Source of the DNA: Chrysochromulina tobinii
Taxonomy: Eukaryota
NCBI GenBank assembly: GCA_001275005.1
Contig: JWZX01003305.1
Span: forward strand, 1 to 57,856
Reading direction: 5' to 3'
DNA length: 57,856 nucleotides
How positions within the stretch are numbered: position 1 is the first letter of the stretch; the number at the start of each line of letters is the position of its first letter. The position numbers and the translations under genes were made by a program. The notes beneath the pieces were generated by a model. That model saw only the letters and a list, made by a program, of their open reading frames with translations. It searched no databases and had not been told where the DNA came from. Positions 29,198-36,200 of this stretch are shown here, one piece after another.

Positions 29198-30372
29198 TTA
29201 CAAAAAGACATGGCTCAGGGCAGCCTCGCTCGCCATCGGGGCGAGCGTCGCCGACGTGAGGAAGTAGACGCCGATACCGCCGGCGATGGAAATGGGCAGT
29301 GCGGGCAGTACCTTCTGCAGGATGGGGAGCAGCGCGAGCGTGGCGCAAAGGCCGGCGATGATGGCCACCGCGCATGCGAGCAGTGCAGCCGAGCTGTGCA
29401 TCGAGGCGCGGCCTACCAGCACGCTGTAGAAGACGAAGTCGCCAAGGCCAAGCTTGATGTCGTTTCCCTGCGATGCGGGTCCACGGCGCGGCCTCAGCTC
29501 CGACACACATGTCAAGGGCACTCGAATGCTCTCGAGGGCAATCAATGGCAATCCGTGGAAATCAAGGGTGCAAGGACCTGGTAGACGAGGCCTGGGATCG
29601 GGTCGCCGCGCCGCTCGGCCTCCTCCACAAGCATCTTGAGCGGACCGCGCGGCGCGAGGACCGCGTACAGATCCCACAGCGCGACCGCCCCGAGAAGGCC
29701 CCAGGTCGACCACTCGGGCAGCCGTGTGGCCGACCAGGCGAGCAGCGCCGAGATGATGATGAGGTAGGCTTGCTGCAGCTGGAGGGGCGGCGTCGGCCCG
29801 CAGCCGTACTCGGTCCAGAAGACGAGCAGAGTGCCGACGGCCGCGAAGTTGTACATGCACACGAAGAAGGTCGGGCTGTCCATCGGTACGTCATGCATGA
29901 AGAGCAACTCTCGTAGCACGTAGCCGCCAAAGATGAAGAGCAGCGTGGAGACGGAGAAGAAGAGCCATGCGTAGATAATCCGGTAGCAGTGGCACTTGTA
30001 CAGCAGCAGCAGCCCGCTCGTCACGAGGAAGAGCGTGAACACGACGACGAGCGCATTGAGGACGACGCCTCCCAGGATCGTACCCGGCGAGTCGGTCGCG
30101 CTCTCCTGATAGACCATGAGCTCGCTGAAGCCGCCAGCGATCCCTTGCGACGCAGCGCTCATCTCATGCACCAGGAAGACGACGAGTGCCATCGTGATCG
30201 AGACGGGCTTGAGCAGCGAGAGGACCTGCGCTCCCGGGTCGCCAAATTCTTCCACCTCGGTCGGACGCTGTTTGTACGGGTCGGGCGGCTGGCTGGCCGC
30301 CTCGGCCGTTGCGTCAGCAGTCATCTCGCTGCTGTTGCTGCCGCTCGATTCAGTCGGTTCAGGTGGAGCCAT
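29198..30372 (-). CDS. PSEN: Presenilin (gamma-secretase catalytic subunit); exons 30372-29578 and 29467-29198
   Basis: LPEWSTW; WDLYAVLAPRGPL (catalytic Asp 1); KLGLGDFVFYS (GxGD); LPALPISI (PAL motif). Confidence 0.95.
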
Positions 30373-30561: not shown

Positions 30562-31329
30562 ATGTTGAGGTTGTTCCCGCTCGTGGTCGGAGCTCTTGCG
30601 CTCTCGCGTGGACCTGCACCGCGTGCTGCGGTCCACCTTTCGGATCTACAGACGGTTAAGGATGCCAAAGCACGCCTCGTGAAAGGGTTGCTCTACAATA
30701 AGCGGATCACGGATGAAGGACTGGCACTCATCGAAGAGCTCGCTGTTCGGGCCCCCCCAATAATAGCCGGCAGCTGGTGGACTGGACGATTTGTGATGAG
30801 CTCGAGCTATCTGGTAGCGGATGCACTGAAAGGACTTGGAATGTGGAGATTGCTTGACGGCGCACCCGTGTCTGTGGCCGTGATGGGTGAGCGCGTCGAG
30901 CTCGAGACGGATCTTCTGGTTCTTGGTTGTGGCACGGGCTTACGCGTGCGAGGCTCACTTCAGCTCCAATCTCTTGTAGATGGGACGGATGCAGTGCGGG
31001 TCACATTGGATGGCTCTGATTTCTTCGAGCCCACAGAGGAGGTGAAGGAACCACTCTTCCAATGTCGTGCTCTGTGCCTTGACCTCGCCTTGACCTCGCC
31101 CAGTGCTCGAGCGCTGCGCTCGTCTCCCGGTTCGCAGTTTGGAATTGCCAAGGCTCTCGTCAAGTGCGAAGCAGAGCTACTCCCAAAGTTGCCAAGCAAG
31201 GACGCGCCGTTCACGATGCTGCTGCGGCCAACCTTTGTCGACGAGGCAATCCTCTTGCTACGAGAGACCGAGATTGAGCCGAAGGAGCGAGAGACGCCGC
31301 TCACGCTCGTGCTTTCGCGCGAGCCTTGA
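30562..31329 (+). CDS. Signal-peptide protein, possibly plastid PAP/fibrillin-like; probable in-frame intron 31042-31137
   Basis: MLRLFPLVVGALAL leader; KARLVKGL...LIEEL; GSWWTGRF; TFVDEAILLLR. Confidence 0.5.
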   Translation: MLRLFPLVVGALALSRGPAPRAAVHLSDLQTVKDAKARLVKGLLYNKRITDEGLALIEELAVRAPPIIAGSWWTGRFVMSSSYLVADALKGLGMWRLLDGAPVSVAVMGERVELETDLLVLGCGTGLRVRGSLQLQSLVDGTDAVRVTLDGSDFFEPTEEVKEPLFQCRALCLDLALTSPSARALRSSPGSQFGIAKALVKCEAELLPKLPSKDAPFTMLLRPTFVDEAILLLRETEIEPKERETPLTLVLSREP

Positions 31330-31477
31330 CTCGCAGAAATAAGTCGCGCACCCAGATGTGAACGCTGCTTTGCGCATGTGGCATTGTTCGAATGGGAACG
31401 CAGCGTAGTTGACTCTAAAGGCGAGTATTAACAGCCAAGTTCACACTCAGCTTGGGCCCTTCGCCTTGGCTGGAAGG

Positions 31478-32760
31478 ATGGGCTTCTTCGGCGCCAAGCC
31501 GGACAAGGAGCCTGACTTCAATCCACCGCTCGCCGGCAAGCCGTACGAGCTGATCTCCTTACTTGGAGGCCCGCTCGGCGACATAGCTCACGATCAGCAG
31601 GCGCTGGCCCGCGCGACAGCACTTGCGAACGGCCCCGAAGCGGCCACGTTTGGCTACCTGCTGCTGGATGTCAAAGGCTGCCTTGGCCGCTTTTGGAAGC
31701 AGGTGTACGCGGTCATCGTCAAGGGCGCCGTGTACATCTTCGAGTCTCCCACGGCGGAGCGCACGCTGCGTTTGCTTGCCGCCAGCGACTGCGAATGCGA
31801 GGTGGGTGAGCGTGAAGAATGCAAGGCCGGAGTGTACTGCTTCCGGTTGAAGCACGCGGATGGTTCTGCAGCGTTTTGCGCCTTCAACTCGAAGGCGATG
31901 CTGCTTTGGTTGCAGGCGCTTCAAACGGGGGGCGTCAAGTACGAAGACCCACCCGTCGACGTCGGCAACACGCAGTCTCTCTTCGAGCTGCGCGCGACGC
32001 TGCTTACGGGTGAGGAGATCGACTTGGACCGATACCAAGGGTGCGTGTGTCTGGTGGTGAACGCGGCCTCTAAATGAGGCCTGACCCCTCGCAACTACAA
32101 GGAGCTCGTGACCCTTCACGAGACCTTGTACGCGCGAGGGCTCCGCATCTTGTGCTTCCCATGCAACCAGTTTGGGAGTGCGCGGCTGCCCGCACACACA
32201 GCTGCCTGGCCGTCTCGTGACCGCACACACGCTCCTCGACCTCCTCTCTTGTGTGCCTGGCAACTCCCTCCACATCGCCTGTCTGTCCATTCGTGTGACC
32301 GGGGTGCGATCGTCGCCACGGTACGTTCACAGAGCAAGAGCCCGGCACAGCGGCAGAGATTCGCACCTTTGTCGACGGTTACGGCGTCGACTTCGACATG
32401 TTCGCCAAGGTGGAGGTCAACGGCCCACGCGCGCACAATGTCTTCCGCTTCGTGCGCGCCGCGCTCCCGGATATCCTCGGTAGCTCGATCAAGTGGAATT
32501 GGACCAAGTTCGTTTGCGATCGCGACGGGCGTCCAGTGAAGCGCTTCGCGCCGCCGACGAGCCCGCTCGCCCTGCTGCCTACGATTGAGGCGCTCCTCGA
32601 GGCGCGAGAGCCCTCAGGCGGCATGCTGCCGACCCCACGCGCGATCGTGGGCGCCAGCGAGGCGGCCACGTCCTCAATGCCTCTCTCGACGACGGCTGTG
32701 GAAGCGCCCGTGGAGGCTCCCTCGCTCCCGCCCCCGCCCCCGCCCGCCGAGCCCATCTGA
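31478..32760 (+). CDS. PH-domain + glutathione peroxidase selenoprotein (Sec UGA at 32075-32077); exons 31478-32177 and 32333-32760
   Basis: PH: FGYLLL...FWKQVYAVI...YCFRL...MLLWLQAL. GPx: LVVNAASK-UGA-GLTPRNY, ILCFPCNQFGKQEP, MFAKVEVNG, IKWNWTKFVCDRDGRPVKRF. Confidence 0.9.
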
Positions 32761-32827
32761 GGCACGGGCTAGGGGATGGAAGAACGCACGGCACTCCGCT
32801 GCCCACGTGAGCCACGAGCCCAAGAAC

Positions 32828-32910
32828 GGTGCGAGCGATATGATGAGCAGCTCTCCCAAAGCATCGCACTCACCGTAGGCGATGCGGAGGCCGCTCGGAG
32901 TCTCAATGCC
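32828..32910 (+). promoter_or_regulatory. Eukaryotic SECIS element (type II) in the GPx 3' UTR
   Basis: ATGA at 32840-32843 opposite GA at 32898-32899; helix GAGC..CTCTCC / GGAGG..GCTC; unpaired AAA at 32858-32860; apical stem GCATCGC/GCGATGC. Confidence 0.8.
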
Positions 32911-33239
32911 GAACGCGCACCTCTCGGGACCACCATGGCCTGGCGAGCCGCGTCCGATCGGATGCACACTCTCTGTGTGGAAGCCGCAGGCACGAATCTG
33001 AATTCCCGCCGAAGCCGGCACCAGTGCAAGCATAAATAATTTTATCGCGTGCCGGGGTTGGTGGGGGTTCGAGCCACTAATAACTTTTCCGTAAGCAAAA
33101 CGACTAACGAGCGACCGCGAGTGCGTTGAGTGACCGCTATTTAGTGTACCGACAGCGGCGCGCTACTGCACGGCACCTTCAGTGTGTAGTACGTATACGT
33201 ACGCAGTAGCGTAGTGCAGCCCTAAGTAGCTTCTGCGCG

Positions 33240-36200
33240 TCACTCACGCGTCGCCCTCTGCTTCTCCCGTGGCCGCAGCAAGTATAGCCCGCCAGCTTCC
33301 GCCGCGACTGTGACGCGAGGCGGCTGCGCGTGCGCCGCGCCCTCCCAGATCGCCTGCGCGGAGGCTCCGCCCTTGGACCTCGTCTCGCACGAGCCCCATC
33401 GCATATTGTACACGTAGCCGCGGCAGTGGGGAGCGGCGGCTGGGCACCGATCTTGCACCGGCACATCGGTGCCGGTCTGGCCGCAGCAGGCGGTCGCGGA
33501 GCCGTGGTCCGCCGCGCAGCGCTTGGCGGCGAGCGCGTGCGTCCCCTCCGTGGCGACGAGCTCTGCGCTCATGGGATTGAGTCCAATCGCAGCCCAGTCC
33601 ACGTGTAGCATGCACTCGGCGTCGTTGGGCGCCCACGAGCCCAAGGCGACGAGTGTGGCGTGTGCGTAGCGCACGTAGGCGGTCGCGAGCACGAGAGCGC
33701 AGCCCTCACCGTCGGGGACGACGCGCACCGGCGGCGCGCGCTCCCAATAGCCAATCATGGTGGCTTGCCCGATTTGGAAGCTGTCCCACACCTTCCAAAT
33801 CGGACGTGGATCGGCCGTGCGGAACCGGGTGGTCATGCCGTAAAGCATGCCGCGCCACGGGTGCCCCTCCTTCATCATGTCGCCCATCAGCCCAAATGGG
33901 AGGCCCGACACCTCCGCGAGCCAATACGCGGGCTGCTCTGCGTAGTCGTACCCCTCCCCGAACCAAAGCGAGTCGATGTACGGCATCAGGTGCATGAACT
34001 GCAGTGCGGGCTGCACCATCCCGTACCTGATGAGGGGTGCACTCAGGCATGCCATCAGTCGCAATCAGTCGCAATCAGTCGCAATCAGGCATGTAATCAG
34101 ACGCTCCACATTGCACGACGAGAGATGCACTCAGGGACCATCAGACGGGCCAACAGCCGCCACGACGTACTGCGGATGAAGGTTGTTGCCGCAGTGAAGA
34201 TCAATGAGCGCCCGCCCCGGGCCCTTTTCGGCCTCGAGGACGCGGCGCACGCGGCGCATCGTATGACGCCCAAAGGCGATCCCGTCATAGTAGATGCCGT
34301 CGAGCCCCACGGGCGGGCGCACCTGATGAGGGAGGCGATCAGATGTCATCGGAGGTGATCAGTGGTCATCAGAGGTGATCAGTGGTCATCAGAGGTTATC
34401 AGTGTCGTCGAGCCCCACGGGCAGGCGCACCACACGGCGCAGCCCCTCGACGTAGTAATTCGCCCAACGCGAGATCCCTTGATTACACAGCGCCGAGTCA
34501 AACTCGCCACTCGAGAGGGGGTTCTGCCAACACGGCGCGTAGTGGTCGACCACGTGCTCGTTGACCCACGGGTCGCCGCCGCCGTCGCCGTCGGCGAGCA
34601 CCTCGTCGCCGAGCGACTTGAGCACGAAGAGCTCATCGGCGTGATTGGAGAGCTCGCGCACCTGATTTTGGAGAGGAACTCATCAGAGTCTCATCATGGA
34701 CTCATCATGGGCTCATGATGGACTCATCAGGAACTCATCAGGGACTCGTCAGGAACTCATCATGGACTCATCATGGACTCATCATGGACTCATCATGGAC
34801 TCATCAGAGACTCATCAGAGACTCATCATTGACTCATCAGAGACTCATCAGAGACCCATCAGAGACTCATCAGAGACTCATCAGGAACTCATCATGGACT
34901 GATCATGGACTGATCATGGACTGATCAGGAACTCATCAGAGACTTATCAGGAACTCATCATGGACTCATCATGGACTCATCAGGGACACACACTCAGCGA
35001 GTCACTCAGAGGTCCTCAGCGTGATCCGAGAGCTTGCACAGACCGTGTAGTACGCCTTGACCCGTAGCTGACGCGCATGGGCGCGCGCCACGTACGCCCC
35101 CATCGCAGTGGTCGAGTGCTCCGAGAAAGGATAGTTGATGTACGGATTGAGCGGCCCATCGACCCCCTGATGGATGTTGAGGACGGTCGCGCCGGATTTG
35201 GCAACGTCCTCTGGCTCGACGAGCCGCGTGTCTGGATAGCCCACTTGGTAGTAGCGCTGCTCCCAGTGCGCCGCCGTGTTGAGCGGCTTACACGGCGTGA
35301 GGAGCAGCTCGAAGCGAAACTGCACCGAGCTGCCCGGGAGCATCGTGCGCGCGCCGCCGTGAGCACGCAGAGCGGCCTGCCCATCAATGCGCACGCCGCC
35401 GCGCCCTCGATTGTGCCACCCTTCGGGGAGATCTCCCTCGCTCATCAGGTGCTGCGCCGATTCAAACGCGCTCGTCTCCCCCACCAGCCGCACCCGCACG
35501 CCCGCGCGCACATCGCCGAGCCACGCCATGTAGTTGCCGAGCCCTGCAGCCCAGTGCCACGCGAGGGGCGTGTTGTTGTGCAGCGCTCGCGCCGGCCGGC
35601 CGAACCCCATCAGGTAGCGCGCGATCTCGGCGTCGAGATCGACGAGCAGTTCGCTCTCCGTCAGCGCCACGGGCGCGAGGTTGGTGCGTGGCGCGGAGAG
35701 CGTGAGCGTGATGATCGCCTGCGAGTCGAACCACCACTCGCCGTAGACGTCGAGCGTGAGCACGTCCCACGCCGTGCCGGGGAGCACGCTCGATTGTAGC
35801 TGCGCCGCCCACCGCACGCGCTCGATGGCACTCGGAGGCGCTGCATTGAGCGCTTCGAGCTTCGCCCACGGGGCCGACGAAGAGGCGGCCTCGACGGCAC
35901 TGAGCACGCGCGACGGAGTGGCCACTCGCCACTGTACTAGTCGATCCTCGACGGCGCCCTCTCGGCCAGGCCTCCTCTCAGCGCCGCCAAACTCCCGACT
36001 GTTGTCGTCAGCGACGCTGAGAGGAGGCCTTGAAGCGCCCCTCCGGTCGCCGCCGGGCAGCACACGCACGTTGAAGCTGATCGGGCGATCAAGGAGCGCT
36101 CGGCGGCCGTCTGGGCACTCGATGCAACTCGACCCCCTTGCAAGGCGTCGGGGCGCCGTCGCGGGCGACTCCGCGGCCGCAGGGGCCTCGTGGCACTCGA

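Follow-up and report, generated by a model that had tools for sequence, protein, structure and literature searches.

An open reading frame starting at ATG 31478 on the forward strand of the 57,856-nucleotide Chrysochromulina tobinii sequence analyzed here (the window) runs for 199 codons and ends at a TGA (32075-32077). Does this locus encode a 199-aa PH protein, or does it encode a fusion of a PH domain to a glutathione peroxidase (GPx) in which the same TGA specifies selenocysteine (Sec)? If the latter, what might the PH domain contribute to the enzyme?

Gene structure and transcripts

The original prediction held that the PH-like frame runs directly into a GPx fold. The two parts do lie in the same frame through the UGA, but an intron that had gone unmentioned splits the GPx domain. 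Past TGA 32075-32077, the GPx frame is kept only up to FPCNQFG (32177) and then breaks. Removal of a 155-nt GT..AG intron (32178-32332) restores FGKQEPG and the remaining GPx, yielding a spliced product of 374 aa with its true stop at TGA 32758-32760. Coding exon 1 (31478-32177, aa 1-233), delimited by the ORF and an RNA contig, specifies a short N-terminal peptide that is variable in relatives (MGFFGAK..., 31478-31522), a helix-loop-helix module with the motif LGGxLGDxAHD (31523-31645, aa about 16-56), a PH domain (31646-31933, aa about 57-152) and the first part of the GPx domain (31973-32177, aa 166-233). Exon 2 (32333-32760) encodes the rest of the GPx domain, to aa about 322, followed by a Pro/Ala-rich tail and the stop; all of these features are on the forward strand.

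Eight of the 19 listed sequencing runs were compared with this gene model (six RNA runs and two of unrecorded kind). The 32178-32332 splice joint is present in five of the six RNA runs and in neither of the two runs of unrecorded kind, where five of the RNA runs are 2019 mixed cultures that may be one campaign and run X13 belongs to a separate freshwater study. Specifically, a single 1471-nt contig (RNA run X4, record 21) matches 31465-32177 joined to 32333-33090 with zero letter differences, defining a spliced transcript of 31465-33090 on the forward strand whose 5′ end is a minimum. To the extent that a contig can prove it, a single spliced molecule therefore carries the start codon, PH domain, UGA, GPx domain, stop and 3′ hairpin, and the cDNA connecting PH to GPx that had been proposed as a check exists. 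Unspliced contigs crossing the intron, which could be pre-mRNA, retention or DNA, are likewise seen in five of the six RNA runs. Altogether, this is a mis-annotated but expressed gene of two exons.

Two of the six RNA runs (X3 and X13) contain a further joint, at a contig depth similar to that of the main one, in which an upstream GT donor at 32041 is spliced to the same acceptor (intron 32041-32332, forward strand). Translation of this form drops the UGA and shifts the frame, giving a 237-aa PH product with a stop near 32481. We regard this UGA-skipping form as tentative, because the shorter side of the joint is 29 nt, a likeness of 92% was used, and the joint is absent from four RNA runs. 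A conserved UGA-skipping donor was considered and rejected, since the required GGG-TG codon pair is found in only 3 of 15 distinct close loci outside the window's species; the pair is present in L008, L010, L013 and L015 (4/16 when L004-L019 are counted). Given this rarity, the 32041 donor is probably a local cryptic site. Additionally, run X13 carries a 13-nt insertion at 32792, in the 3′ UTR upstream of and outside the hairpin.

The flanking sequence contains a presenilin exon (29542-30372, reverse strand; Pfam), a 255-aa ORF without a Pfam match (30562-31329, forward strand) and part of a GH123-type glycoside hydrolase (33240-34055, reverse strand; Pfam), and no functional link between these neighbors and the PH-GPx gene is evident. 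Short tandem repeats, GCAATCAGTC-like and GTGGTCATCAGAG-like, lie at about 34050-34090, 34350-34400 and 34696-34924 and are probably intronic.

The catalytic UGA and the 3′ UTR hairpin

As originally claimed, the in-frame TGA occupies the catalytic position of the GPx domain (NAASK-TGA-GLT), which would make the encoded residue Sec200. We kept 80 of 209 metagenome loci, 42 of which match both PH and GPx. The catalytic codon is TGA in 42/42 of these PH-bearing loci, a biased count, given that NVSS-Cys forms fall outside the scan patterns and that several loci are almost duplicates of each other; the neighboring codons vary, with synonymous change around the TGA. In the homologue alignment, other members, among them P0091, P0092, P0094, P0096 and P0097, have Cys at the catalytic position, and the proposed search for PH-GPx relatives with Sec or Cys thus returned both kinds. 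Four database proteins (P0090, P0093, P0110 and P0157) have Trp at this position, probably through the UGA being read under code 4 by the gene caller. No tRNA gene was found in the 57,856-base window.

The expectation that standard annotation would truncate such a gene is borne out by the databases, which hold the window protein only in its 199-aa form. In the first protein search, 18 database relatives covered the PH domain, and each of the 18 stops precisely at the catalytic codon. Of 73 cluster representatives (E<=1e-10), a strict pattern places the end of 51 at the Sec position and inspection by eye adds a further 7; in 5, Cys allows read-through, and 10 are fragments or unrelated to this type. 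Because gene callers treat the UGA as a stop and name what remains 'PH domain-containing protein', databases scarcely show the family at all. A product terminating there would consist of the PH region plus 34 GPx residues.

A type II SECIS-like hairpin (32834-32906, forward strand) had been placed about 70 nt after the true stop, and it is present: its AUGA core (32840) begins 79 nt past the stop, the apical AAA follows 13 nt after the AUGA, and a mini-stem and a 3′ GA ending at 32900 complete the element. Its folding energy alone is not unusual (z -1.0). A simple hairpin finder, which scored UTRs longer than 60 nt and left out three shorter ones, found such hairpins in 17/30 UTRs and in 27/1200 shuffles. 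Across 18 relatives, 10/10 helix pairs have changes on both sides and covariation reaches 0.40, versus 0.08-0.14 in slid controls, although selecting these hairpins for their pairing inflates the pair counts. A cleaner test is the model built from the 18 relatives with the window excluded, which ranks 32834-32906 first in all 57,856 bases (25.9 bits, E 1e-4), the next-ranked match reaching 15.2 bits. An Rfam scan matched none of the SECIS families at E<=10 and gave one chance hit.

That Rfam result, and the fact that databases list only the 199-aa form, would suit a gene whose UGA is a true stop, making a 199-aa PH protein with a relic GPx half. However, every near-complete relative keeps an open frame and the full GPx motifs beyond the UGA, the stop would fall inside the GPx fold, the hairpin is conserved, and homologues with Cys continue through this position; termination at the UGA as the gene's normal fate is consequently highly improbable. 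From these sequence comparisons, the UGA is very likely decoded as selenocysteine through the 3′ UTR hairpin.

The PH domain and its family

The N-terminal domain, predicted to be PH-like, adopts a PH fold by structure prediction. Pfam PF00169 matches aa 60-149 with 23.3 bits (E 9e-5), just below the 25.1 cut-off, and PH is above the cut-off in 16/23 relatives. The AlphaFold model of exon 1 resolves the helical module (about 16-56, pLDDT about 90) and the PH fold (about 57-152), and in Foldseek this model finds PH domains in all matches listed, with a best E of 3e-6. The lipid-binding PH domains of DAPP1 (1fao), TAPP1 (1eaz), ASAP1 and Grp1 have the same fold, with an rmsd of 2.2-2.4 over about 97 residues, at about 10-21% identity; unlike them, the window PH lacks the canonical basic residues and has six cysteines. 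In the full-length model of the relative L004, which is 69% identical over exon 1, pLDDT is 87 and pTM 0.79, both values being those of L004 rather than of the window protein, and the tail is disordered. This model suggests that the module, PH domain and GPx domain may pack as one unit.

The most consistent feature of the PH domain, by family alignment, is a set of residues comprising E111, C115, Y120, C121, F122, C134 and S138, each kept in 141-149 of 164 distinct family sequences; specifically, E111, C115, C121 and C134 are kept in 145, 141, 149 and 144, respectively. The three family-wide PH cysteines are a new observation, and the kept residues may be structural, metal-binding or part of a redox relay.

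The closest named relative of the window protein is from Prymnesium polylepis (54%, protein search). More distant fusions, DEP-PH-GPx(Sec) proteins (L025-L041 and P0074, the latter from the amoebozoan Planopodium desertum), have in common with the window protein the PH signature E-x3-C-x4-YCF plus C-x3-SK, the same PH-GPx junction by alignment, and a UGA at the same place. Their PH domain is homologous to that of the window (hhalign probability 99.6 over 94 columns). In contrast to these proteins, the window protein has no DEP domain (Pfam), has the LGGxLGDxAHD module, and has lost the basic lipid-site residues. Pfam DEP is found in 13/13 distant DEP-type loci versus 0/10 window-type and PH-PH-type relatives, the PH-PH forms being L022, L023 and P0229, in which a second PH domain stands in front. 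Profile hits to the helical module occur in P0224, P0231, P0229, L022 and L023, and in some relatives the module follows DEP or the second PH; P0224 and P0231, for example, are intermediate forms consisting of DEP, the helical module, PH and the start of GPx. The idea that the module is a DEP remnant was rejected, because, despite one suggestive alignment, the hhalign score of 10.4 is matched by 8/60 shuffles, and proteins carrying both DEP and the module also rule it out.

In a quick, unrooted tree of the PH domain plus junction, with row P0243 disregarded, the module-bearing forms group together (SH-aLRT 91), with the DEP-retaining pair inside. In a likewise quick and unrooted GPx-domain tree, which included no GPX4 sequence, all 42 fused rows fall into one branch of 46 rows (SH-aLRT 83), so that the fused domains form a branch of their own; both supports are weak. 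One of the other four rows in this branch, P0110, is a fragment with a PH end. The long Cys-type proteins P0104 and P0108, which have a diverged PH-like region without the cysteine triad, also group with the fused family in the GPx tree. The ESM Atlas cluster for P0091 is oomycete-rich, is named only glutathione peroxidase and has a length similar to that of P0104 and P0108; for the window protein itself, the ESM Atlas gave no usable hit.

By these comparisons, the window gene belongs to a wider eukaryotic DEP-PH-GPx family, of which it is the haptophyte-type form without DEP, and the simplest reading is that a DEP-PH-GPx ancestor lost DEP in the window lineage. The architecture, which the original prediction did not recognize, is thus not unique, yet a published description was not found either: our literature search, which covered few subscription papers, returned no GPx-PH or DEP-PH-GPx fusion. 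Algal selenoproteins joined to a second domain, as in the window protein, are on record as SELENOM-pVHL, SELENOM-ShKT and GST-MSRA, haptophytes included (PMC7539508, section 11); the main text of that paper names no GPx-PH fusion, and its Figure 4 and supplement could list one. The main text of PMC8614756 does not mention 'pleckstrin', 'fusion' or 'fused'. The PH-GPx(Sec) fusion family is apparently wide but undescribed.

Catalysis, and possible targeting and signaling

The catalytic part of the window protein is an ordinary GPx. Pfam GSHPx (PF00255) matches the two exon products with 72.3 and 32 bits (cut-off 27; E 3e-20 for the first part), the catalytic tetrad is present (U200, Q235, W288 and N289), and the domain, short and of the monomeric type, has its best matches in structures of GPx4 type (2v1m, 2wgr and GPX4 chains). 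The best structural match of the L004 model is the Schistosoma phospholipid GPx 2wgr (Z 26.8, rmsd 1.5, 161 of 163 residues), and no chain listed for this full-length model covers both PH and GPx. By that relative's model, the window protein has the fold of GPx4/PHGPx (human GPX4; Schistosoma mansoni 2wgr and 2v1m), with which it has in common the Sec-Gln-Trp-Asn tetrad, a UGA with a 3′ UTR SECIS and the lack of a resolving Cys. It differs from GPx4 in its additional helical module and PH domain, in a family-specific LxxxLGSSIKWN loop, and in Leu202, where GPX4 has a basic residue. The helix after QEPG reads F246-V247-D248 at what we take to be the position of the resolving Cys (246-248); Cys is not among the residues listed at 247-248 in the 42 fused rows, whereas it is present in plain GPx rows. 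Plants and fungi have GPx-like enzymes of a thioredoxin-dependent, two-Cys type, with the same monomeric GPx fold as the window protein, but these need a resolving Cys (PMC8614756); the window has F-V-D at that helix position. The GPx motifs of the window, NAASKUGLT, LCFPCNQF and WNWTKF, are slightly unlike those quoted in PMC8614756.

Phosphoinositide-binding PH domains carry the motif KXn(K/R)XR, whose basic residues lie in strand 2 and where strand 1 ends. The window PH has D64 and V76 at such positions, and phosphoinositide binding, which the original prediction had drawn on for membrane targeting, is therefore weakly supported. Close relatives have R at 64 in 16/19 but a basic residue at 76 in 0/19, while the DEP-type relatives are basic at the two positions in 13/15 and 11/15. 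The N-terminus MGFFGAK is present as described, but the myristoylation proposed for it is doubtful. The PROSITE pattern for N-myristoylation demands Gly2 and allows only certain residues at positions 3 and 6; Gly2 occurs in only 1/15 other Met-starting relatives, and the pattern is matched by 0/18 N-termini, the window's Phe3 failing it. Many relatives (P0004-P0018 and L009-L018) open with a few residues rich in Phe, Leu and Arg and then prolines (MFARFF, MLKRLF, MFSGLFG); this peptide might serve as an amphipathic signal or as one for import. In 3/4 runs, another transcript has the same 33 nt as 31478-31510, with 2 differences, followed by unrelated sequence absent from the window; a second gene may therefore have an MGFFGAK-type start peptide, which would point to a common address signal.

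A classic phosphoinositide-binding PH domain acting together with N-myristoylation could still anchor the enzyme directly to membrane, in keeping with lipid-binding PH domains such as DAPP1 as the top Foldseek rows, the presence of Gly2 and Lys7, the start MGAAPS of the relative L008, and the basic residues that DEP-type relatives keep. We consider direct anchoring unlikely, since a common fold says nothing about the ligand, the residues at 64 and 76 and the Gly2 pattern argue otherwise, and the net charge of the window PH is near zero (11 K+R, 10 D+E). Alternatively, the PH module could by now be a structural cap, with no part in targeting, on an ordinary soluble GPx4-like enzyme; this would suit a lineage that has lost both DEP and the lipid-binding residues, and tight packing would keep such a PH conserved. 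However, the surface-type residues E111, S138 and K139 are kept across distant eukaryotes and the N-terminal modules are swapped, which suggests a targeting role and leaves the cap very improbable.

We propose that the window gene probably encodes a GPx4-like peroxide reductase using Sec, likely kept at a single place in the cell by its PH module. In this model, which is built on sequence and on GPx4 chemistry, Sec200 would attack a lipid or other hydroperoxide, and the oxidized Sec200 would be recycled by glutathione or a protein thiol because the GPx helix has no resolving Cys. Docking would occur via a protein partner or a non-canonical surface rather than a classic phosphoinositide pocket.

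The same conserved residues permit a different use of Sec200, as a redox relay or sensor in which its oxidation by peroxide is handed on to C115, C121 and C134 of the PH domain or to an associated partner and thereby changes the binding or location of the protein, much as yeast Gpx3 relays to Yap1. The conservation of E111 and the three cysteines, the absence of a resolving Cys at 246-248, the compact L004 model and the signaling nature of the N-terminal partners (DEP or a second PH) are compatible with such a relay. On the other hand, the PH cysteines may be structural or metal-binding, and the long Cys-type relatives P0104 and P0108 lack them, and a relay is accordingly a minor possibility compared with site-held peroxide reduction. 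An extended version, to which we likewise give a small likelihood, is that of an ancient selenoperoxidase signaling family with a fixed PH-GPx(Sec) core and swappable address modules (DEP, a second PH or a short peptide), in which the PH cysteines would take up Sec oxidation as a peroxide-operated switch at a membrane signaling site and the UGA-skipping form would provide a PH competitor free of selenium.

The known GPx4-type enzymes consist of one domain and use their own surface to reach membranes. A PH-bearing GPx, retained in an amoebozoan and other protists as well as in haptophytes, would be a case of site-addressed removal or sensing of peroxides. Prymnesiophytes have a selenium need, and haptophytes include bloom algae (PMC6254913); in the light of this requirement, the window gene is an added candidate for haptophyte selenoproteomes. 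PH-GPx would also be a natural tool to ask where in the cell lipid peroxides matter.
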